The translations under genes were made by a program, and so were the position numbers. DNA of 64,000 nt, taken from positions 608,001-672,000 of the forward strand of contig JAXHNL010000002.1 of the NCBI GenBank assembly GCA_034520565.1, written 5' to 3'. The notes beneath the pieces were generated by a model. That model saw only the letters and a program-made list of their open reading frames with translations. It was not told the origin of the DNA and made no database searches. Below are positions 4,820 to 60,970 of this stretch, one piece after another. Each line of letters starts with the position of its first letter. Within the stretch, counting starts at the first letter, position 1. Origin of the DNA: Halodesulfurarchaeum sp. Lineage in GTDB: Archaea > Halobacteriota > Halobacteria > Halobacteriales > Halobacteriaceae.

Positions 4820-7800
4820 ATGCGCGAGATCGATTCCGCCTACTTCGCCGAACTCGAATCCCGGCTCCAGCGGGCCATCTCGGTCGCCGAACGCGCCCGC
4901 GAGAACGGCGGGGATCCGGTTCCCGAGGTCGAGATCCCCGTCGCGACGGACATGGCCGACCGCGTCGAGAACATTCTCGGTATCGACGGGGTCGCCGAGC
5001 GGGTGCGGGACCTCGAGGACGACTATTCCCGCGAGCGGGCCGCGCTCGTGCTCGTCGAGGACTTCGTCGAGGGAAGCGTCGGCGACTACGAGACCCGCGA
5101 GGGAAAAGTCGAGGGTGCGGTCCGGACGGCGGTCGCCCTGCTCACCGAGGGCGTGGTCGCCGCACCGATCGAGGGGATCGACCGGGTCGAACTGCGCCAG
5201 AACGACGACGGGTCGGAGTTCGTTGCGGTCTCGTATGCCGGGCCGATCCGGTCGGCCGGCGGGACCGCCCAGGCGCTCTCCGTGCTCGTCGCCGACTACG
5301 CCCGGGCACTGCTCGGGATCGAGGCTTATCACCCCCGCGAGGCGGAGGTCGAGCGGTACGCCGAGGAGGTCGCCCTCTACGACCAGGAGACCGGCCTGCA
5401 GTACACCCCCTCGGACGCGGAGGCCAAACACATCGCCCGGAACGTGCCGATCATGCTCGACGGCGAGGCCACTGGCGAGCGCGAGGTCTCCGGGTTCCGG
5501 GACCTCGAGCGGGTCGACACGAACCGCTCGCGGGGTGGCATGTGCCTGGTTCTGGCGGAGGGGATCGCACTCAAGGCCCCGAAGATCAAGCGGTACACCG
5601 ACGAACTGAGCGAGGTCGAGTGGCCGTGGCTCCAGTCGCTCATCGACGGCGATCTCGGTGCCGAGACCGATTCGGCCGACGCGCCTCCCGAACCCGCCGA
5701 GGAGGCCGGTTCTGACGACTCCGTTGGCCCGCCACGGGTGGAGCCCTCGGGGAAGTACCTCCGGGACCTCATCGCCGGTCGCCCCGTCTTTTCCCACCCG
5801 AGCGAGCCAGGCGGGTTCAGGCTCCGCTACGGCCGGGCGCGAAATCACGGTTTCGCGACTGCTGGGGTCCACCCGGCGACGATGCACCTCGTCGATGACT
5901 TTCTCGCGACGGGGACCCAGATCAAGACCGAACGACCGGGCAAGGCCGCCGGCGTCGTGCCCGTGGATTCGATCGAGGGGCCGACGGTCAAACTCGCGAA
6001 CGGCGACGTGCGCCGGATCGACGACCCGGCAGAGGCCCTCGAGGTGCGAAACGGTGTCGAGGCGATCCTCGACGTGGGCGAGTATCTCGTGAACTACGGC
6101 GAGTTCGTCGAGAACAACCAGCCCCTGGCCCCCGCGTCCTACACCGTCGAGTGGTGGGAAAAAGACATGGCCGCCGCGGGGGCCAACGTCCAGGCACTCG
6201 AGGACTCGCCCTACGTCGACCTCGAACACCCCGATCCCGAACAGGCGCTCAACTGGGCCCGGGACCACGCATCCCCCCTGCACCCCGAGTACACCTACCT
6301 CTACCACGACATCGACGCCGAAGCGTTCGACGAACTCGCCGACGCCCTCGCCAGCGGTTCGATCGTCGAGGACACCCTGCAGGTCCCACGAACGGAGTCG
6401 GTTCGCGAGATCCTCGAGGTGCTTCTCGTCCCCCACCACCAGTCAGTCGAGACGCTCGAAATCGAGGACTGGCGGCCGCTCGTTCGAACGGTGGGCATCA
6501 CCACCGATCTCGACCGCGAGTGGGAGTTCGCCGACCTCCCCGAGTCGGCCCGCGAGTGGGACAACGCCATGAAGGCAATCGAGGAGGTCGCCCCCTTCGC
6601 GGTTCGCGAGCGGGCCCCGACCCGCATCGGGAACCGGATGGGCCGGCCGGAGAAGTCCGAATCGCGGGATCTGAGCCCGGCGGTCCACACGCTCTTTCCC
6701 ATCGGTGACGCCGGCGGCGACCAGCGGGACGTCGGTAAGGCAGCCGCGTCGGGCGACGAACTCGACGGCAGCCAGGGCACCGTCGAGGTGGAACTCGGCA
6801 CCCGGGAGTGCCCCGCCTGCGGCACCGAGACGTACAGGCCCCGCTGTGAGGACTGTGGCACCCAGACCCGCCCGGTGTTCGAGTGCCCCGAGTGCGACAT
6901 CGGGTCGAACCGGACGACGGCGGCCGGGTCGAGTGCCCACGGTGTGAGCGAGAACTCTCGAACGTCGAGTTCCGGACCGTCGACGTCGGGGCCGAGTTCC
7001 GGGACGCCCTGGCCGCCCTTGGCGAGCGCGAGAACGCCTTCGACATCGTGAAAGGTGTCAAGGGCCTTATGTCGGCGACGAAGGTTCCCGAGCCGATGGA
7101 GAAGGGGATTCTCCGGGCCAAACACGGCGTGACGGCGTTCAAGGACGGGACGGTCCGCTACGACATGACCGACCTGCCGGTGACGACGGTCCGCCCGGCC
7201 GAACTCGACGTGACGGTGGACGATTTCCGCGAGCTGGGCTACGAGGAGGACGTCAACGGCGAACCGCTGGAGCATGCCGACCAGCTCGTGGAGTTGCGAG
7301 TGCAGGACGTCGTGCTCTCGGATGGGGCCGCCGAGCATATGCTCAAGACCGCCTCGTTCGTCGACGAACTCCTCACGGATTACTACGATCTCGATCCCTT
7401 CTACGAACTCGACGACCGCGAGGATCTGGTCGGCGAGCTGGTGTTCGGGATGGCCCCACACACCAGCGCGGCGGTCGTGGGCCGGGTCGTTGGATTTACT
7501 TCCGCTGCGGTGGGCTACGCGCATCCGTACTTTCACGCCTCGAAGCGGCGGAATTGCTTCCATCCGGAGACGAAAATCTGGTTCGAGGACGAGGATGGTG
7601 TGTGGCGTCACGAGACGATCGAGTCGGTGGTAGAAGGCCGGCTCGAAGACCCTCTGGAAGACGATTTTGGAACACTGGTCGAGGAGATCGGTGGCGAGAT
7701 TCGTGTCCCATCGATCGAAAAAGACGGAACGCCCACGCTGGAGCCAGTCTCGGCCATTTCGAAACACCGTTCGTCCGACCACCTTCTCGAAATAGAACTG

Positions 7801-8898
7801 GAAACTGGCCGCTCGCTGACGGTGACACCTGACCATTCGATGCGGAAGTGGGAGGCCGGAGTTTGTGAACTGAGCGCCTCTCAAATCGAGGTAGGTGACG
7901 TCATCCCACGTCCTAATGTTGGTGGAAATAGCCCCAAAATTCGTGACGGAGACCAACTCGAGCGGTGGCTTTCACGAACTCGGTCGAAAAAATCCGAATC
8001 GTCTCCGGTGGCCGCAGACGGGAGCGTCGGATCAGTCCATCTTGACGAAGTAGTTTCTGTCGACATCGTCGAAAGTGAGGTCGAATTCACGTATTCCGTA
8101 ACGGTGGACAATACCCACACGCTCCTTGCCAATGGCTATCATGTCGGGCAGTGTGACGGTGACGAGGATTGCGTGATGCTCCTCATGGACGGCCTGCTCA
8201 ACTTCTCGAAGCAGTATTTACCCCACACGAGGGGCGGGAGGATGGACGCACCGCTCGTCATGTCCTCTCGGATCGATCCGGAGGAGATCGACGACGAGGC
8301 CCACAACATGGACACCGTCCGGGAGTACTCCCGCGAGTTCTACGAGGCGACCCGCGAGATGGCCGATCCCGGCGACGTGGACGTCGAACTCGCCGAGGAC
8401 CATCTCGGCACCGACCGGGAGTACTCCGAGTTTCACTTCACCCACGACACCTCGAACATCGCGCTCGGGCCCGACCTCTCGGCGTACAAGACCCTCGGCT
8501 CGATGATGGACAAGATGGAGGCCCAGCTCGAACTCGCCCGCAAGCTCCGGGCCGTCGACGAATCGGACGTCGCAGAGCGCGTGATCGAGTATCACTTCCT
8601 GCCCGACCTGATCGGAAACCTGCGGGCCTTCACCCGCCAGGAGGTGCGGTGTCTCTCCTGCGGGACGAAGTACCGGCGGGTCCCTCTGACGGGCAACTGT
8701 CGGAACTGCGGCGGGGACGTGAACCTCACCGTTCACGAGGGGTCGGTGACGAAGTACCTCGAGACGGCAATCGAGGTCGCCGAGGAGTACGGCTCCCGGG
8801 AGTACACGAAACAGCGGCTTCGGATCCTCGAGCGCTCGATCGACTCCATTTTCGAGAACGACAAGAACAAACAGAGCGGCATTGCGGATTTCATGTGA
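4820..8898 (+). CDS. polC: DNA polymerase D large subunit DP2, intein-containing; apparent single-base deletion near 6902
   Basis: AGPIRSAGGT, FRLRYGR, RIGNRMGRPEK, Zn fingers, HPYFHASKRRN/CDGDED, C-terminal CxxC..CxxC and PIP-like QSGIADFM; two overlapping ORFs join in the Zn-finger region. Confidence 0.95.
7555..8151 (+). mobile_element. Mini-intein in DP2 (199 aa, no homing endonuclease)
   Basis: Inserted at KRRN|CDGDED; starts CFHPET, block B TPDH, ends NGYHVGQ/C; lower GC than the exteins. Confidence 0.93.
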
Positions 8899-8917
8899 GC
8901 TCCGGCTGCCGATCCCC

Positions 8918-9697
8918 TTACCGAATGTTCCACTTCGATTCCAGGACGGTGTGGGATTCGAGCGCCCGCTCCAGCTGCTCGACGCCCTGCGAGAGCGTCC
9001 TGGCGATCGACCGCTCGTAGGAGATCCGGTGAGGCGGCCCCGAGATGTCCATGGCTCCGAGAATCTCGCCATCCGAACCCCGGACCGGCACCGCCACCGC
9101 CTTCAAATTCTCCCAGGCCTCCTGTTCGTTGACCGCGTAGCCTCGCTTCCGGACGAGTTCGAGTTCCTCGTCGAGGGTTTCCCGGTCGGTGATGGTGAAT
9201 TCGGTTCGCTCGGGCAATCCCCACCGATCGATAATCTCGTCGACCTGTTGTTCGTCCATTTCGGCGAGCATCGCCTTCCCGGCGGCCGAACTGTGGAGGT
9301 AGAAGTACTGGCCCCGCTGGAACCCTTCGAGGGTTCCCGTATCGAGGCTGTCGAAGAGCGTGATCGCTCGTCCGTTTTCCAGAACGGAGAAGTTCACCAC
9401 TTCGCTGGTCCGATCGGCGATCTCGTAGGTCTTCTCGCGGGCCAGCATGAACTGGGTATTTCGGCGCTTGGCCTGCGTGCCGAGGTGGAAGAGTTTCAAT
9501 CCCAGCCGGTAGCGACCCTCCCGTTTGACGACCAGCCCGTTCTCCCGCAGCGTCTGGAGGTGCTTGTGTGCCGTACTGACTGCCATCTCCAACTCCTCGG
9601 CGAGTTCGCTTACTGTCGGCCCGTTCAGGTTTGCGACGGCCTCGAGAACGCGTAAGGACGTGTTCGTGGTCTCGTGTGTTCGGCCCGTCCCCCTCAT
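8918..9697 (-). CDS. IclR-family transcriptional regulator
   Basis: N-terminal HTH 'VSELAEELEMAVSTAHKHLQTL'; 'LHSSAAGKAMLA' effector-domain motif. Confidence 0.92.
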   Translation of the reverse strand: MRGTGRTHETTNTSLRVLEAVANLNGPTVSELAEELEMAVSTAHKHLQTLRENGLVVKREGRYRLGLKLFHLGTQAKRRNTQFMLAREKTYEIADRTSEVVNFSVLENGRAITLFDSLDTGTLEGFQRGQYFYLHSSAAGKAMLAEMDEQQVDEIIDRWGLPERTEFTITDRETLDEELELVRKRGYAVNEQEAWENLKAVAVPVRGSDGEILGAMDISGPPHRISYERSIARTLSQGVEQLERALESHTVLESKWNIR

Positions 9698-28664: not shown

Positions 28665-29837
28665 TCAGAAGACAGCCAGTACGACCTGGAACCCGGCATA
28701 CCCGACGACGAGCGCACCGAAAAGCGAGCCGACCCACGCCAGCACGGTGTAGCCCATTTTGGACGCACTCACCCCCTCCCGACCCTCGACGGCCAGGCCG
28801 CTGCCCATGATCGCGCTCACGACGATCTCGTTGAAGGAGACCGGGACGCCGAGGAAGACGGCACTCTGGGCGAGCACGAAAGCCGGAATGAGCGCAGCGA
28901 TCGACCGCCGCGGGCCGAGCGAGGAGTAGTCCTGGGCGATCGCCTTGATCATCCGGGTGGCCCCGGTCCAGGAGCCCACGAGCAACCCGATCCCGCCCCC
29001 GAGGAGGATCGCCAGGAGGGGGAGGCTCTCGCCCACGAGCGGAATCAGCGGGCCGACGGCCAGCCCGACTTGACTCCCGCCGGCGGAGAAGGCCACCAGC
29101 CCGCCCATTGCGATCAGGAAGTGCCGCATTCCCACGATCGGGTCCCGGCCGAGGTCCCACCGGAGCACCGCCGCCACCGCGATCCCGAGCCCGACAGAGG
29201 CTGCCCCGACGAGCCCCGTTTCCGGTCCGGCAACCGAGTCGGCGACGACCCGGGCGATCGATCTGGCCCCGTCTGCACCGAGGACGTCAAAGCGGATGTT
29301 CGCCACGACCACGCCAACGAGTGCGCCGAGAAGGGGGACCGTCTGCCGGTCGCGGTCGGTCGATCGAAGTATCTTCGCCGTCGCGTAGGCGACGCCGCCC
29401 CCGACGAACGGGACGGCCACCCAGAGCGCGACGATCTCTCGGTAGGCCCCCCAGGCCGGATCGCCGCCGAGTGCGAGGCCGACCCCGACCACCGCGCCGG
29501 TCACGGTGAACGCGGTCGCGATCGGGTACCCGGCGAACACGCCGATCGCGACGAGCGTGGCGGCGATGGCGAGAATCGTGACGACGGCGGGTGGCGTGAG
29601 CGTCACGCCCCCGATCAGGCCGGTGCCGACAGTCTCGGAGACGTTTGCGCCCTGGAGGACGGCGCCGGCGAAGCCGAGGATACCGACGAGGAAGCCGGCC
29701 CGCATGACCGAGATGGCGTTCGCCCCGACGGCCGGGGCGAAGGGGGTCGAGCCACTCGAGCCGGCGCCGATCGCCCAGGCCATGAAGAGACTGGCCAGCC
29801 CGGCGACCGCGAGGGTGGCGAGTGCGCCGACACTCAT
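28665..29837 (-). CDS. PiT-family inorganic phosphate transporter
   Basis: 'AWAIGAGSSG..PFAPAVGA' and 'AFSAGGSQVGLAVG' PiT-like repeats; highly hydrophobic. Confidence 0.82.
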   Translation of the reverse strand: MSVGALATLAVAGLASLFMAWAIGAGSSGSTPFAPAVGANAISVMRAGFLVGILGFAGAVLQGANVSETVGTGLIGGVTLTPPAVVTILAIAATLVAIGVFAGYPIATAFTVTGAVVGVGLALGGDPAWGAYREIVALWVAVPFVGGGVAYATAKILRSTDRDRQTVPLLGALVGVVVANIRFDVLGADGARSIARVVADSVAGPETGLVGAASVGLGIAVAAVLRWDLGRDPIVGMRHFLIAMGGLVAFSAGGSQVGLAVGPLIPLVGESLPLLAILLGGGIGLLVGSWTGATRMIKAIAQDYSSLGPRRSIAALIPAFVLAQSAVFLGVPVSFNEIVVSAIMGSGLAVEGREGVSASKMGYTVLAWVGSLFGALVVGYAGFQVVLAVF

Positions 29838-30807
29838 CACGTGCGGTTGCACGGCGGGCGGGTAAGTGCCTGTCGGACGTGGGGTGGAATGGTTTGGAGA
29901 GGAAGACTGTATCGTGTGGGCCGGGAGGGCCATCTCTCTTACTAGGGGTATCTGTACAATGGTCGGCTACCGGTCGTCCGGATTCAGCTTGAGCCCTTTT
30001 TGGTTCTCGTGTCTGATCTCGCCCTCGAACCCCTCAAAGACGACCTTGAGCCGGTCGGCAAACTTGGTCGTTGGCCTGGTTCTGGGATTCTAAAACCATC
30101 GGATTGTCGAAGCGGATATTGTCCTTGGAAATCTGTTGAGCGTAAACAATGATTTCGTTTGGCCATCTTTGCTCTCTTGGACCGGATAGTATCCCAGCCC
30201 TCTATTTCTACATAACTCCGAAGTGAACGCGATTGTCTCCTACACTTTTCCACCAGAATTACGGTGTTGGCGAAGATTCGGATAATGAACTTTAACCGGT
30301 AGTCCATTTTCCACTATCATCAACGCCGTACTTCCGGAGTAATCTGGTGGCGTGACCTAGCGTTGATGCAGCTTACTCGGAACTCCGACAATAACTTAAA
30401 AAAGAAAGGGTAGTATGACCATCAACGGTTTCCTATATTCAAGCATCAACGTAATTTGATACGAGAGCGGTTTGCTATCCATCTGCTGTTCTAAATTACA
30501 AAGATAGATTATTTATATCGGGGTAGCTATCTCTACTATTTCAAACACCAATAAGTTGGTAATAGTCCTTCAAAATCAATCACGTTGGTCTATTCCCGTA
30601 CAAATATCGAGTATAATCCCTCTCACTTATGGCGTTTTTACATTGGAACGCTTTGTTTTTCGATATTGCCAACGCGATTTGATTCGACAGATGTCATCGA
30701 CGAACTCACGTTTTCTTGAAAAAAATAGGACTTAAATACCGTCCTAACTATCTTTACTATCTCCAACGGACCAAAAGCTTATAGGGCTCCCGCTAAAACA
30801 GAGGCCT

Positions 30808-31206
30808 ATGACGCAGCAGAAATCGCTCGACGACCTGCTCGTCGATGAGGACGACTTCAACGAGAGCATGCTAACCGACGTACTGGCCCCATTCGTGGGG
30901 ATCGGGGACAACAGCGGGACCCTTCTTCCGACGGATAAGTTCGAGGAACTCTCGGCGGTCGCCCAAACGGCTGTGGTCCTCCTCGCTCGCAAGGCGACCT
31001 ATGAAATCGGGCTATCCGAGGAGGAGGGCGCGACCCCATTGGACATCTCCCAGATTTCCGGGATCAACCATAACACCGTCAAGACGGCCGTCCGGGACTT
31101 GGACGAGATGAACCTAGTCGCTAACGACGACGGCGAGTACACGGTCCCGACCTACGACTACGACAAAGCCAAGGATCTGATAAAGAGTGATCACGATGAC
31201 CGCTGA
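30808..31206 (+). CDS. Islet gene A: small winged-helix-like protein
   Basis: 'TPLDISQISGINHNTVKTAVRDL..MNLV....GEY.V' HTH-wing pattern. Confidence 0.75.
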   Translation: MTQQKSLDDLLVDEDDFNESMLTDVLAPFVGIGDNSGTLLPTDKFEELSAVAQTAVVLLARKATYEIGLSEEEGATPLDISQISGINHNTVKTAVRDLDEMNLVANDDGEYTVPTYDYDKAKDLIKSDHDDR

Positions 31207-31582
31207 CATCGAAGAGCGTGTGGAGGATTTGGAGCGCCGTGTTGGTGAGCTGGAGGACATGCTTGAGGGCGGCACGATCATGCCATCGAAATCGGACCTC
31301 GAGGAGTTCCTTGACCTTACCTCTCCAAACACCCACGTCGAGCGAGCGACCGCTATCGGGTTCTGGCTCGTCCACGAGGCGGACGAAGGTCCCTTCATGG
31401 TTGCCGACGTGGAGGACGCCTACGAGGACTGCCGCCTCAGGAAGCCGGCCAACATGAGTGACGTACTTGCCGGGGCCAATGACCGGGGATGGCTGATGCG
31501 GCAGGGGAGGAAGGGACAGAACCAGCTGTGGATGATCACCAAGGAAGGAGACGAGGCGGTCAATGGAGGGTTCGCGGAATGA
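31196..31582 (+). CDS. Islet gene B: coiled-coil plus winged-helix-like protein
   Basis: N-terminal heptads 'IEERVEDLERRVGELEDML'; C-terminal 'GWL...WMITKEG' wing; overlaps A and C. Confidence 0.75.
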   Translation: MTADIEERVEDLERRVGELEDMLEGGTIMPSKSDLEEFLDLTSPNTHVERATAIGFWLVHEADEGPFMVADVEDAYEDCRLRKPANMSDVLAGANDRGWLMRQGRKGQNQLWMITKEGDEAVNGGFAE

Positions 31583-31977
31583 CCCTGGACGAGGAGATCA
31601 AAAGTAAGTTCCTGACCGAAACGGAGACTATCCTCGAGGGGCACCTTGACGACCTCGAGGGGATGTTCCAATTCCATGAGGACGGCACGATTGAGCTGCT
31701 TGGCGAGTACCGGGAGATCCGGCCGGAGGACAGGATCCTCATCTATCTAATCGCCAGGCGGTACCAGTTCGAGGCCGACCTCGCCGAGAGTGACTCGATT
31801 CCTTACAGCGAAATATATGGGGTGCTACTCGATAAGAAGAAGAGCACGGTGAGGGGCTACTTCATGAACCTGCGGGAGGACGGGTTCGCTCGAAAGGTTG
31901 AGGACGGGCACGAACTAGTGGTCGAGCGCTTGCCGGAGGCCATTGACCGAATTGATTCGAACGGCATCGGGGATTGA
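31579..31977 (+). CDS. Islet gene C: paralog of gene A (winged-helix-like)
   Basis: 'RILIYLIARR..FEADLAE' and 'STVRGYFMNLREDGF' align by eye with gene A; ATGA overlap with B. Confidence 0.75.
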   Translation: MTLDEEIKSKFLTETETILEGHLDDLEGMFQFHEDGTIELLGEYREIRPEDRILIYLIARRYQFEADLAESDSIPYSEIYGVLLDKKKSTVRGYFMNLREDGFARKVEDGHELVVERLPEAIDRIDSNGIGD

Positions 31978-31991
31978 CCTCAATCCACCAA

Positions 31992-32765
31992 TCATTCAGC
32001 TTGTTCGGCGATACGAATTCCCTGGAGTATGTCGTAGAGGATTTCCGCGAACCTTGTCGCCTCCCCGGAAAACGCCTCAACCTCCTCGTCGGCGAATTCC
32101 ACCCGGAGGGCGTGGGCCCCGGCGTTCCCTTCGTCCTTGAGCTCGCGGATGCCCTCAACCAGGGACCGGTCGAGCTCGCGCGAAAACCTCCTCAGAGTTG
32201 GGACGGTGTCAGAGAGGTTGTTAAGAAGCTCATCGAAGCTGTAGTGGCGGCTGTTCTCCTGGTCGTAGAACATCTGGACATCGTCCCCCGAGTAGTATGT
32301 CTTGAGAATCTGGAAAATCAAATCCTCAAAGAGCTTCCGGCTGAGCACCAAAGTCGCGTCGTAGATGCGATATCGGTAGCATTCGTTGATGTCGTCAACG
32401 AGCTGCGCGTACCTCTCGTCGCTTTCGAAACCATCTGTGTTGATGAACAGATCTCCCTCGTCCCTTGTGTTGACGAGTACGGTTTCATCGAGCCACCCCT
32501 CTACGTACTCAACCCCGGCAGGGGTAAGACGATATTCACCATTGCCCACCGAAGCAATCAGGCCGTCTCCATCAAGCCGATCGAAATATCTAGAAACCCC
32601 GGATGGGGAGTAAATGGATCGCGACTGCTTAATTTCGGTCCTGACTTCGGCCTGGGCTACTTTGGGTTGGCCTTCAACTTCATCAAGGTAGTAGAGCGCA
32701 AGTGCGGCATGCTCCTTGCCGCCGGCGTCATCATCTAACCCCTCAAGATAGCGATCAAAACTCAT
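31992..32765 (-). CDS. Islet gene D: N-terminal wHTH plus C-terminal DUF4145/HEPN-like domain
   Basis: 'GEYRLTPAG' wing; 'INECY...YDATLVLSRKLFEDLI' and 'IRELKDEGNAGAH' match the HEPN/DUF4145 pattern. Confidence 0.72.
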   Translation of the reverse strand: MSFDRYLEGLDDDAGGKEHAALALYYLDEVEGQPKVAQAEVRTEIKQSRSIYSPSGVSRYFDRLDGDGLIASVGNGEYRLTPAGVEYVEGWLDETVLVNTRDEGDLFINTDGFESDERYAQLVDDINECYRYRIYDATLVLSRKLFEDLIFQILKTYYSGDDVQMFYDQENSRHYSFDELLNNLSDTVPTLRRFSRELDRSLVEGIRELKDEGNAGAHALRVEFADEEVEAFSGEATRFAEILYDILQGIRIAEQAE

Positions 32766-33415
32766 TAGTCCTCGTTAGACTCGAGACGGTCCACCGTGCG
32801 CGCGATCTGGTCGCACCCTTCTCTCCGACCAGGGAGAGTGAGTTCGATCGCTGTATGTTCTCCAGTCCCTTCCCTTCGGAAATATTGGTCACCCTCACCC
32901 TCATTGAAATAATACATGTTGTATAGACTCGAATCGTCAATGCCGGAAATTCTAAGCGCGTCCTTGAGCTCCGGCGACATCACCGACTCAATTCCCATGC
33001 ATTCCCTCCAGAGTGTAAAGAAAATCAAAGAGGCTCGCATCTGCATTTCGCTCCTGCCCGATCCGGATTCGCCCAACACATCGACTTCGAAATTGAGAGA
33101 GGGTGGCTCGTCCCCGTCGGGGTTTACGTCGAAGTACTGATTGAGGACCGCATTGTCGATACCTGTCTTATCTGGTATGTCTCCGAACCTTGGACCCGAA
33201 CCCTGGGTTGGTCGATCTGACGTATCATCTGTCTCGGGGACCGAGACATTCTCGGCCGTATTACTAGATTCCTGGCTAGCGTAGCCTTCGAGTATATCCT
33301 CATTTTCCTCGATAAAACTGATGAAGTTGATGAGCTCTTCCTGAACTTCCTCTCGGTCTTCTCCGGCTAGCTCGACGTTCAGGCGGCCAAGACTGAGTGA
33401 GACCGTTAGTTCCAT
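32765..33415 (-). CDS. Islet gene E: hypothetical protein with a probable C-terminal wHTH
   Basis: Acidic 216-aa ORF coupled to D (TAATG overlap); C-terminal 'IELTLPGR' wing-like motif. Confidence 0.7.
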   Translation of the reverse strand: MELTVSLSLGRLNVELAGEDREEVQEELINFISFIEENEDILEGYASQESSNTAENVSVPETDDTSDRPTQGSGPRFGDIPDKTGIDNAVLNQYFDVNPDGDEPPSLNFEVDVLGESGSGRSEMQMRASLIFFTLWRECMGIESVMSPELKDALRISGIDDSSLYNMYYFNEGEGDQYFRREGTGEHTAIELTLPGRREGCDQIARTVDRLESNED

Positions 33416-33722
33416 ACTCGGTGTCTGACACACGTATGACGCAAATAATTTGCTACAATGCCAAAAATACTGATGACGCGCCCTTCTGTGTGTAATTTAA
33501 CAATCTCTGGTAAGTGGAACGAATACGGCTGGGTTCGTGTAATTCACCATGGAACCGCCCGACTGCGACTGCCCTACGTTCCTGGATGAGGGCAACCCGG
33601 ACGAGGATTTGGAGCCGGTAGCCGTCCACGGTTCGATAATACAACAAGATATATTTGATATAACCATACCTATAATATATTTTAATACAATAGCAGTCAA
33701 TGATACAGTACAACCTCCCCCC

Positions 33723-34076
33723 ATGCCGATCCCAAAGGAGCGTTTCGAGACGATCGCGGACGACAGCATCTCTCCGGGCACGAACGCAGAGCGGATCATG
33801 ACATTCTTGCTGGAGAACGAGGCCTACGCATTTCGCATGACCGAAATCGCCGATGGGGCTGACATTCCACAGGGAAGTGTGGGCCCGACGCTCCGACGAA
33901 TGGAGGAAGACGGCCTGGTGGAACACCGGGCGAACTACTGGCGGGTTTCGGATTCATATCTGGCCTCAGAAGCTGGACTGTCACTGGCAAATGCGGTTGC
34001 GGCCGAATACGACGACGGGAAGGAGTTCGACAGCGACGCGTGGGATGCCGTTGCCGAAGAGCCGAGTGGCGAATAA
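33723..34076 (+). CDS. MarR-like HTH protein (haloarchaeal antitoxin-type)
   Basis: 'MPI..E.F', 'GTNAERI..FL', 'EIA...DIP.GSVGPTL.R....GLVEHR..YW'; AT-rich promoter upstream. Confidence 0.75.
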   Translation: MPIPKERFETIADDSISPGTNAERIMTFLLENEAYAFRMTEIADGADIPQGSVGPTLRRMEEDGLVEHRANYWRVSDSYLASEAGLSLANAVAAEYDDGKEFDSDAWDAVAEEPSGE

Positions 34077-34208
34077 CTTCTTGAGCGGTCGCGAAGGAGA
34101 GACGAATGGCGTATTTGTGACGAGATCTGGTTTGGGAACTCGAATCGTTCAAATCGACCAAATCCCCGGGGAAAGGGACGTAAACGACGTCCGGCAAGCC
34201 CCACTCCC

Positions 34209-34907
34209 TCAGTTCGTCTGCGAATCCGGCTTTGCGTCGTCCGGTTTGTCCGCCCCCGACGGCGCTTCCACCCCCTCGACGGCCTTGGCGACCTCGATGT
34301 CTTTCTCGGTGTCCACGTGCCAGCGATCCACGTCCTCGAACGAACGGAGGTGCTCTTTTACCTCCTCCTTCAACTCCTCGTCGTTGACGTTGACCTCGAA
34401 GACGAACTCGTCCTGGGCGCGCACCCGCTGGATGTTCGCGCTGATCAGGTCGTTGTCGAAGTAGTAGGGGGCGACCTGGGTCATCACCTTCTGATAGACG
34501 GTGTTCTCGAGTTTCCGGAGGGCCTTTCGACTCGCGGTGTCGGCCGCGCGGGCCACGTAATCGATGGTGTCCTGCCACTTCTCGACGGCCCCGTTCGCGT
34601 CGTTGTCCTCGATGTGTTCGTAGGACTCCGTGAGCCGCTCGCCGGCGGACTGGAGGTCCTCGTCGGCGGTTTTTCCCTTGGCCTCCCCCTCCCCCTTGCC
34701 GACGCTGGCCTGGTCGGCGGTCTTCTCGGAGACGTCGGACTCGATCTGCTCGTGCATCTTGGGCCGCCATTCGACCCACTCCTCGAAGGCGTCCGTGTGG
34801 GACTCTCTCGCGCCGGCCTCCCGGAGTGCGTTGGTGATTCGCTCGCCGTGCTCCACGACCTCACCCCAGGTTCCCCGCTGTTTGAAACCCGAGATGCTCT
34901 CTTCCAT
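34209..34907 (-). CDS. Conserved haloarchaeal hypothetical protein (DUF5828-like)
   Basis: 'MEESISGFK.RG.W.EVVEHGERIT', 'APYYFDN.L.SAN'. Confidence 0.75.
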   Translation of the reverse strand: MEESISGFKQRGTWGEVVEHGERITNALREAGARESHTDAFEEWVEWRPKMHEQIESDVSEKTADQASVGKGEGEAKGKTADEDLQSAGERLTESYEHIEDNDANGAVEKWQDTIDYVARAADTASRKALRKLENTVYQKVMTQVAPYYFDNDLISANIQRVRAQDEFVFEVNVNDEELKEEVKEHLRSFEDVDRWHVDTEKDIEVAKAVEGVEAPSGADKPDDAKPDSQTN

Positions 34908-60965: not shown

Positions 60966-60970
60966 AGAAG

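Follow-up and report, generated by a model that had tools for sequence, protein, structure and literature searches.

Abortive-infection proteins of the HEPN fold join a variable N-terminal domain to a HEPN domain, and the architectures given in the excerpted text of Anantharaman et al. 2013 (PMC3710099) include DUF4145 with zinc ribbons and AbiJ-NTD. RAZR, in the excerpted text of PMC13017515, is an RNase with a DUF4145 domain in which R146 and H154 are required for defence. Outside CRISPR and restriction–modification, the immune systems of archaea, and of haloarchaea above all, are poorly charted. Here we describe a group of six winged-helix genes, labelled A–F, all missed by PADLOC, in a 64,000-nt stretch of Halodesulfurarchaeum sp. 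(GCA_034520565.1, contig JAXHNL010000002.1, positions 608,001–672,000), hereafter the window. The product of gene D ends in a predicted HEPN RNase domain of the DUF4145 type, and E is its putative partner.

Genes A–E lie in a low-GC islet, as a coupled A-B-C trio on the forward strand that converges, 14 bp away, on a coupled E-D pair on the reverse strand. The open reading frames (ORFs) and the GC profile bear out this layout, which an initial annotation had described from the sequence, and the peptide strings quoted there are all present. Our preferred reading, held tentatively and at a little under an even chance, is that these are two separable cassettes of one mobile-element gene pool: an E-D HEPN RNase module of abortive-infection or toxin–antitoxin (TA) type, and a facultative winged-helix trio. 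A single obligate five-gene system, as first proposed, is less likely.

D is the candidate effector. Its AlphaFold model, with a predicted local distance difference test (pLDDT) score of 85, has two domains, and residues 115–251 mostly score 80–92. Residues 11–99 match MarR-, PadR- and DtxR-type winged helices with Z of 9–10.8. For residues 115–251, all matches listed above Z 8.4 in VIA-align are HEPN-fold proteins. These include the AF_0298 HEPN protein (2hsb; Z 12.2, root mean square deviation 2.6, 119 aligned), Roquin-2 (Z 11.4), SsR10 (Z 10.5), 4nqf (Z 9.1), HepS (9oij/9oik; Z 8.6–9.1, over D residues 115–257), HepT toxins including HepT of MntA–HepT (Z 8.9–9.0) and Csm6 (Z 8.7–8.9). As modelled, the C-terminal domain has the four-helix up-down HEPN core fold. 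A Foldseek search with the whole D model returned nothing at E ≤ 1e-3, its list being dominated by winged-helix proteins, and profiles of D (alignment A1), of the HEPN domain (A6) and of the X::A proteins described below (A7) found nothing significant among PDB sequences.

The HEPN domain of D carries a DUF4145-type motif, [RK]-x2-G-N-x3-H, with an invariant His. A217 and H218 are invariant; counting from the His, position −4 is N or D, and all 19 diverse domains compared have K or R at position −8. The alignments likewise show no variation at R143, K144 and E147, which lie on the first HEPN helix. Among the 150 best representatives, position −8 holds Arg in 94, Lys in 42 and another residue in 4, the motif not being found in the remaining 10, so that 136 of 140 motif-bearing sequences have K or R there. 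The initial annotation had called the D C-terminus DUF4145-type, with ‘Lys where Arg is usual’; the HEPN fold matches and the conserved catalytic-type motif agree with the first statement, and the second is accurate because Arg outnumbers Lys at a position that is basic throughout. The K/R interchange suggests a conserved basic function. The spacing of K210 and H218 equals the R-x7-H of RAZR R146/H154, and L004, a bacterial protein recovered by motif scan, belongs to DUF4145 proper (38.3 bits), its LRNEGNKGAH lying in register with the KDEGNAGAH of D.

Searched against 1.84 billion representatives, the HEPN profile A6 matches 838 proteins at E ≤ 1e-3; tightening the threshold to 1e-10 leaves 498, and to 1e-30, 139. 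Most of the matched proteins are 240–290 residues long with a C-terminal HEPN domain. The N-termini of the best 150 include winged helices of the type shared by D and B (33) and of the type shared by A and C (2), and 12 have at least two CxxC motifs. Scanning 52 without a winged-helix or zinc-ribbon N-terminus against Pfam identified AbiJ_NTD5 in 19, AbiTii in 1 and DUF4145 above its cut-off in 1 (the gathering cut-off of PF13643 is 23.1 bits; cluster P0138 scores 28.2 bits against this family). To judge by their sequences, the N-termini of the nearest HEPN relatives (AbiJ_NTD5, AbiTii, zinc ribbon) give them the layout of abortive-infection RNases.

In the sample of 401 haloarchaeal genomes used for the D, HEPN and trio profile searches, full-length D relatives occur in 11; in about 20 others the match, at E ≤ 2e-29, covers the HEPN domain alone. 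About 20 genomes (L029–L035; for example L029:1171-1947 and L035:1198-1980) encode proteins of 237–298 residues in which a zinc ribbon of DUF2321 type, at the N-terminus, is joined to a HEPN domain like that of D, and two haloarchaeal D-like HEPN proteins score as DUF2321 zinc ribbons. This architecture resembles RAZR/PD-T7-4, yet the PADLOC PD-T7-4 model is silent, matching none of 7 related haloarchaeal HEPN proteins at E ≤ 0.1.

The remaining products belong, like the N-terminus of D, to winged-helix families. Family alignments were built from other genomes (A1 for D, A2, A3 for A, A4 for B, A5 for C, A6 for HEPN) and compared with hhalign, and the homology claims rest on these separate alignments because the first iterated hidden Markov models (HMMs) merged A with C and B with the D N-terminus. 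A and C are paralogues, as the initial annotation had it: a direct BLASTP comparison is marginal (E 2e-4), and their family profiles align over 103 columns (probability 97.0%, E 9.3e-11). The likeness it saw between B and the D N-terminus is confirmed by hhalign over 92 columns (probability 97.4%, E 1.1e-11), B residues 35–128 aligning with D residues 3–96, while BLASTP is empty; B is thus an effector-less homologue. A and B are unrelated by hhalign (E 0.35). F matches Pfam MarR_2 (5e-4) and, weakly, PADLOC Csa3 (1.8e-5), is distantly A-type (hhalign probability 94.6%, E 6.9e-8, against the A family) and has three to four paralogues elsewhere in its own genome.

E is the divergent member. Its AlphaFold model (pLDDT 80.8) shows a beta-hairpin and helix at residues 3–47, an acidic disordered linker at 48–73 and a compact domain at 75–216, and the best 50 fold matches of residues 108–216 are winged-helix proteins only (Z up to 8.1). 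The wing that the initial annotation gave to E stands at the level of the fold; its proposed likeness to B is not significant in sequence (hhalign E 0.16), and only a faint one joins E to the D N-terminus (E 0.0019, probability 14.5%). The N-terminal beta-hairpin domain with its acidic linker is without known counterpart. The hhalign and fold results point to two winged-helix families, an A/C (and F) type and a B/D type, with E as a divergent third, and support a winged-helix-like character for all five products, six with F. At curated thresholds, A–E match nothing in Pfam, NCBIfam, PHROGs or PADLOC, and E has no Pfam, NCBIfam or PADLOC match; the best library match among the five is PHROG 2440, ‘transcriptional regulator’, on the winged helix of D (E 9.5e-7).

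The E-D pair recurs as a unit. D has 49 homologous clusters, of which the named ones are all haloarchaeal, annotated as hypothetical, ‘transcriptional regulator’ or ‘DUF4145 domain-containing’. E has 18, and eight contigs are apparently common to the D and E match lists. Across 12 other D loci, analysed with 6–9 kb flanks and family HMMs, E lies directly upstream of D in 10 and is absent in two (L039, L043). In 8 of the 12, an integrase or what remains of one is found no more than 5 kb from D, and in L001, L036, L037, L042 and L045 it directly adjoins E-D. Homologues also occur on Halorubrum and Halobacterium plasmids. Genes of known defence types adjoin D in two loci. Downstream of D, L045 has a trypsin-like gene (LmuA / RT-protease-like). 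In L038, where E is split into two ORFs, a GmrSD-type restriction gene for 738 residues (6940-9156, reverse strand; DUF262/DUF1524; PADLOC HEC-06/SspE-like) overlaps the D stop by 4 nt.

Coupled adjacent small genes, with a winged-helix partner upstream of D, give E-D the generic layout of a type II TA system. Perhaps E and D are no more than such an addiction pair, E the antitoxin and D the toxin, with no antiviral role, and A-B-C and F are unrelated passengers. The coupled upstream partner of DNA-binding type followed by a HEPN toxin is the classic TA order, and the mobile-element location and the HepT matches fit as well. We nevertheless consider this explanation distinctly unlikely: E is not an MNT nucleotidyltransferase, the B–D and A–C homologies are specific to families and go beyond generic fold likeness, and fusions, described below, tie the A/C family to the HEPN clade. 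Three runs of a D+E complex prediction scored 0.42, 0.00 and 0.00 and count neither for nor against binding.

The trio is equally regular. Strong B matches occur in 12 of the 401 haloarchaeal genomes, and in the 11 other than our own, where its neighbourhoods were analysed, A, B and C are colinear and coupled throughout, the exceptions being a C cut by the contig end in L062 and a partial C in L063. In 7 loci it is accompanied by a HerA-like DUF87 ATPase and an AAA_assoc_C protein of 325–329 residues, and in 3 by an XPB/ERCC3-like helicase; a family-B DNA polymerase lies nearby in two (L065, L066). On the Halobacterium hubeiense plasmid pSTJ003 (L084, 6607-11996), and also in L065–L069, A-B-C followed by f6, the AAA_assoc_C protein, converges on an operon of A′, f10 and the HerA-like ATPase, just as A-B-C converges on E-D in the window; no family matches f10 (314–317 residues).

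Beside the XPB-like helicase, three loci encode X::A proteins of 270–296 residues (L063:5564-6451, reverse; L064:8111-8923, reverse; L071:12112-13002, forward), in which a highly conserved N-terminal domain of about 165 residues precedes a C-terminal A-type winged helix. Its RNxRDSVH is reminiscent of the HEPN Rx6H, but sequence comparison does not confirm a HEPN identity: hhalign against the D-type HEPN domain gives E 0.36, and Pfam nothing at E ≤ 1. Weak Atlas leads for this domain are an unnamed cluster (0.93) and one in which 27% of the members have DUF4145 (0.79).

The two cassettes meet in several places. On an integrase-bearing island of G012 (L039), D and a HerA-A-B-C-f6 array lie 2.5 kb apart, and on a plasmid of Halorubrum sp. 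CBA1229 (L085), D, E, three A-like genes, an E′-like gene and a DEAD-box helicase fall within 7 kb. Co-occurrence of the two operons elsewhere, on which the initial annotation had staked its proposal in advance, is thus found in the first and in part on the second. In G147 (L070), the third trio gene is a 286-residue C::HEPN fusion, in the C position and with the same HEPN domain; a convergent E′-like gene for 206 residues (beta-hairpin N-domain and B-type winged helix) follows it, and a helicase precedes the trio. C::HEPN recurs in clusters P0068–P0070, which are 98, 86 and 73% identical to the G147 fusion, and in P0138 the HEPN domain is followed by a C-type winged helix. In N. zhouii (L002), E-D is followed by a convergent E′-like gene and then a helicase.

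Two side observations concern these loci. The E′ family (175–206 residues) combines an E-like N-terminal beta-hairpin domain and acidic linker with a B-type winged helix, and its members adjoin a helicase and D or C::HEPN (L002:6796-7323, reverse; L070:10279-10899, reverse; L063:10004-10558, forward; L071:9418-9957, reverse; L085:1495-2046, reverse). The G147 helicase (L070:4306-8487, forward) has 1393 residues, against 641–648 in its homologues, with an apparent intein-like insertion of about 700 residues.

By genome counts, the HEPN domain is present in 31 of 401, the trio in 12 and both in 3 (0.9 expected if independent), and in all three of the last they lie within 3.5 kb of each other. 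We treat this adjacency as suggestive, because these genomes are relatives of one another and their islands could be hot spots; the HEPN–trio fusions are stronger evidence. These links bear on whether A, B, C, E and D assemble into one obligate complex, a nucleic-acid sensor gating the HEPN RNase, with B as decoy or regulator and the two operons as one unit. The B–D homology, the A–C paralogy, the C::HEPN fusion in the C position with its convergent E′-like gene, the HEPN–C order of P0138, the Halorubrum plasmid cluster, the shared island of G012 and the gain of the window genes as one 4.3-kb insertion would all follow from it. Set against this is the rule of separate occurrence, E-D being found without A-B-C in 11 of the 12 other D loci and A-B-C without a D-type HEPN domain within about 9 kb in 9 of the 11 other trio loci; the usual companions of the trio are, instead, the HerA-like ATPase with AAA_assoc_C or the XPB-like helicase. 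An obligate complex of five products seems unlikely to us, and on this point the initial annotation, which took the five genes as one unit, does not hold.

A broader and equally doubtful proposal is an undescribed, modular family of haloarchaeal conflict systems carried on mobile elements. In it, the winged helices of two lineage-specific families, the A/C and B/D types, would be interchangeable sensors or adaptors, free (A, B, C, E′, F) or fused to HEPN (D, C::HEPN, HEPN::C), and working with a HerA-like ATPase, an XPB-like helicase or HEPN. A-B-C and E-D of the window would form one hetero-oligomeric complex, in which effector-less paralogues (B against the D sensor, A against C) set the threshold of the RNase on foreign nucleic acid.

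Because both cassettes sit among mobile-element backbone genes, element regulation or maintenance is a live rival to conflict. The six proteins might be transcription or segregation regulators serving a lysogeny-type switch, copy control or origin binding, with the HEPN domain of D as a non-catalytic dimerisation or ligand domain. A winged helix in every product, the integrase beside E-D in five loci and the presence of the trio, on plasmids and islands, in the company of genes for a HerA-like ATPase, a helicase and PolB accord with such roles, as do the Lys for Arg, the silence of PADLOC and the fold matches to MtlR/YggD. Yet hundreds of divergent relatives keep the catalytic-type residues, which would be surprising if the domain were purely structural, the closest HEPN relatives carry N-termini of abortive-infection type and K and R interchange at −8. 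On balance, we find an element-housekeeping role improbable.

A number of results weigh against our preferred reading of an E-D RNase module beside a facultative trio. Since separate occurrence is the rule, the trio–HEPN link could be co-carriage on the same elements. Helical bundles can reach Z 9–12 by chance, by the tool's own caution, so sequence evidence matters for the HEPN assignment, and the non-catalytic HEPN-fold regulators MtlR/YggD also match D (Z 8.4–8.9). D of the window lies below the DUF4145 gathering cut-off and has no Pfam HEPN or DUF4145 match at E ≤ 1, a six-frame search of its own genome gave none at E ≤ 0.1, and of 22 D family members only 10 match DUF4145, weakly (E 3.3e-4 at best). 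D lacks the canonical Rx4-6H spacing, having K210-x7-H218 with G, E and D at −5 to −7, and has Lys rather than Arg at −8. Among 92 ORFs neighbouring D, 84 have no PADLOC match at 1e-5, and 2 of the 8 that match are helicase or HerA cores of a generic kind. Profile scans of IMG/VR and tblastn against INPHARED phages found no relative of D or B, and a viral origin or target is therefore not indicated.

How the preferred arrangement might work can be outlined by analogy with the clade. The islet would be a fragment of a haloarchaeal mobile element, its two cassettes built from the same two winged-helix families. The N-terminal winged helix of D is its predicted sensor or regulatory domain, and the HEPN domain a predicted metal-independent RNase of the DUF4145/RAZR/AbiJ-like clade. 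D would be inert until the N-terminal domain or the partner answers a trigger; HEPN domains would then pair to form a composite active site from K210, N214 and H218 with R143, K144 and E147. Cleavage of cellular or invader RNA by D would arrest growth, either in abortive infection or in post-segregational killing to the advantage of the element. E, whose gene precedes that of D, is coupled to it in translation and is inherited with it, is probably the cognate partner of D, most likely neutralising it, sensing with it or both. The trio may be joined to the RNase facultatively, by fusion in some lineages and by adjacency in the window, and A, B or C might contact D; A and C are paralogues, B is a homologue of the predicted D sensor domain with a coiled coil, and the trio normally occurs with a HerA-like ATPase or XPB-like helicase on plasmids and integrated elements.

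The islet is an acquired insertion. Between about 29900 and 34200, GC is 0.38–0.61, against 0.64–0.73 in the flanks, and the insertion is absent from 3 of 3 congeneric genomes, where the left and right flanks abut (at 76335 and 76341 in G010, and at 493297 and 493291 in G004). A phosphate-transporter-like gene ending near 29876 lies on the left, and a DUF5828 gene starting near 34208 on the right. The insertion ends are thus wider than the 30808–33415 of the initial annotation, and take in F as a sixth winged-helix gene, separated from E by 133 bp. The B start codon is an ATG 11 nt inside the end of A, and an alternative GTG at 31187 would give 131 residues. No convincing flanking direct repeats were found at the insertion edges in an att-site search, the sole tRNA of the window, at 60970, is not near the insertion, and Rfam gave nothing at E ≤ 0.1 on 29500–34500. 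The insertion holds no nucleotidyltransferase, helicase or SMC gene; its own genome has no second copy of A–E, and no integrase, HerA or helicase adjoins the islet.

Table 1. Features of the acquired islet, in window coordinates
Feature	Positions	Strand	Description or basis
Acquired islet, low-GC insertion, about 4.3 kb	29877..34207	.	GC profile; flanks contiguous in congeners G004, G010, G020
AT-rich, apparently non-coding left part of insertion, upstream of A	29984..30807	.	GC 0.38-0.48, short unsupported ORFs
A	30808..31206	+	132-residue A/C-type winged-helix protein; first gene of the A-B-C trio; weak TrmB/HTH_24 matches
B	31196..31582	+	128 residues; N-terminal coiled-coil-like helix and D/B-type winged helix; weak coiled-coil Pfam matches
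C	31579..31977	+	132-residue A/C-type winged-helix protein; ATGA overlap with B stop
Spacer between convergent stops of C and D, 14 bp	31978..31991	.	
D	31992..32765	-	257-residue winged-helix–HEPN protein, predicted RNase effector
D N-terminal D/B-type winged helix, about residues 1-100	32466..32765	-	Winged-helix fold matches; homology to B
D C-terminal HEPN domain, residues 109-257	31995..32441	-	Fold matches; alignment A6
Catalytic-type motif KDEGNAGAH (K210, N214, H218)	32112..32138	-	Translation
E	32765..33415	-	216-residue D partner; TAATG overlap (1 nt) with D start
F	33549..34076	+	175-residue MarR-like winged-helix protein, divergent from E

The left AT-rich stretch (29984–30807, about 0.8 kb) reaches a GC minimum of 0.375 and could represent a promoter region or the decayed end of an element; a 107-residue ORF within it (29984–30307, reverse strand) is without family support. 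Elsewhere, the genome encodes a family-B DNA polymerase with an f21-like gene (C2:977933-980977), 53% identical to those beside trio loci, and, on a small contig, a HerA-like ATPase (C1:118528-119397); neither site has an A-B-C trio nearby.

If this interpretation is right, D would extend the design of a swappable sensor with a DUF4145-type HEPN RNase, as in bacterial RAZR, to a winged-helix sensor with a dedicated partner. Haloarchaea also have versions of this HEPN clade with a RAZR-like zinc ribbon or an A/C-type winged helix. What is new is a putative HEPN effector, abortive-infection-like, whose sensor domain and partner are both novel, within an undescribed haloarchaeal network of winged-helix genes. 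In this network, A-B-C, seen in 11 other genomes and on plasmids beside a HerA-like ATPase or a helicase, is an uncharacterised cassette conserved on haloarchaeal mobile elements. A defence specialist may not find the module very surprising, but it is unannotated, recurrent and directly testable. Should E-D prove toxic and neutralisable, it would provide a new TA or abortive-infection pair for Haloferax or Natrinema genetics, and a test case for effector modulation by free-standing copies of a sensor domain.

The initial annotation recognised no named system, and PADLOC, Pfam, NCBIfam and PHROGs, without a match, agree; no paper listed by the literature searches describes the module in its title or the opening of its abstract. 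Three described candidates were considered and rejected. The MNT nucleotidyltransferase is the known HEPN antitoxin, and E-D is not a HEPN-MNT system because E is not a minimal nucleotidyltransferase. AbiE sets an AbiEii nucleotidyltransferase toxin next to an AbiEi winged-helix antitoxin; here it is represented by a weak AbiEi match to the winged helix of D (E 0.027), and the islet has no nucleotidyltransferase gene. PbeABCD, in the excerpted text of PMC6459918, is a phosphorothioate-dependent archaeal defence in which PbeA is a PLD and helicase protein and PbeC is SMC-like, usually found with dndCDEA. It shares the haloarchaeal setting, and helicases in L002, L063, L064 and L071 match PbeA at about 1e-35; however, only the SF2 helicase core matches, their N-terminus is a winged helix and not PLD, there is no SMC-like PbeC, and the window has no helicase.

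Other systems share single features with E-D. HepT–MntA is likewise a coupled two-gene module with a HEPN toxin, and HepT structures match D, but E is a winged-helix protein and not a nucleotidyltransferase, and the HEPN domain of D is DUF4145-type with its own winged helix. The Gifsy-1 prophage defence protein HepS is also a HEPN effector borne on a mobile element, and matches D in structure; it has no detectable sequence relation to D and a different sensing part. We know of no partner gene for HepS. Csm6/Csx1 proteins (CARF–winged helix–HEPN) combine winged helix and HEPN in one chain as D does, whereas D has no CARF domain or CRISPR context and belongs to another HEPN clade.

The closest likenesses are to RAZR and AbiJ. 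Like RAZR (ring-activated zinc-finger RNase; PD-T7-4), which acts as an abortive-infection RNase with the catalytic pair R146/H154 (excerpted text of PMC13017515), D is a single chain of about 200–260 residues in which a small N-terminal domain for sensing, predicted as such in D, precedes a HEPN domain of the DUF4145 type. It differs in that RAZR has a Cys4 zinc ribbon, whereas D has a winged helix without CxxC pairs, Lys in place of Arg and the upstream partner E; the PADLOC PD-T7-4 model gives no D match at E ≤ 1. AbiJ-like proteins, in the excerpted text of PMC3710099, share the plan of a variable N-terminal domain and HEPN, and AbiJ_NTD5–HEPN proteins are among the closest relatives of D, but the N-terminus of D is a winged helix of a haloarchaeal family and not AbiJ_NTD, and AbiJ is a single gene where D has E. 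On the sequence comparisons, D is, in its predicted working, closest to RAZR/PD-T7-4 and AbiJ-type proteins, and a member of neither.

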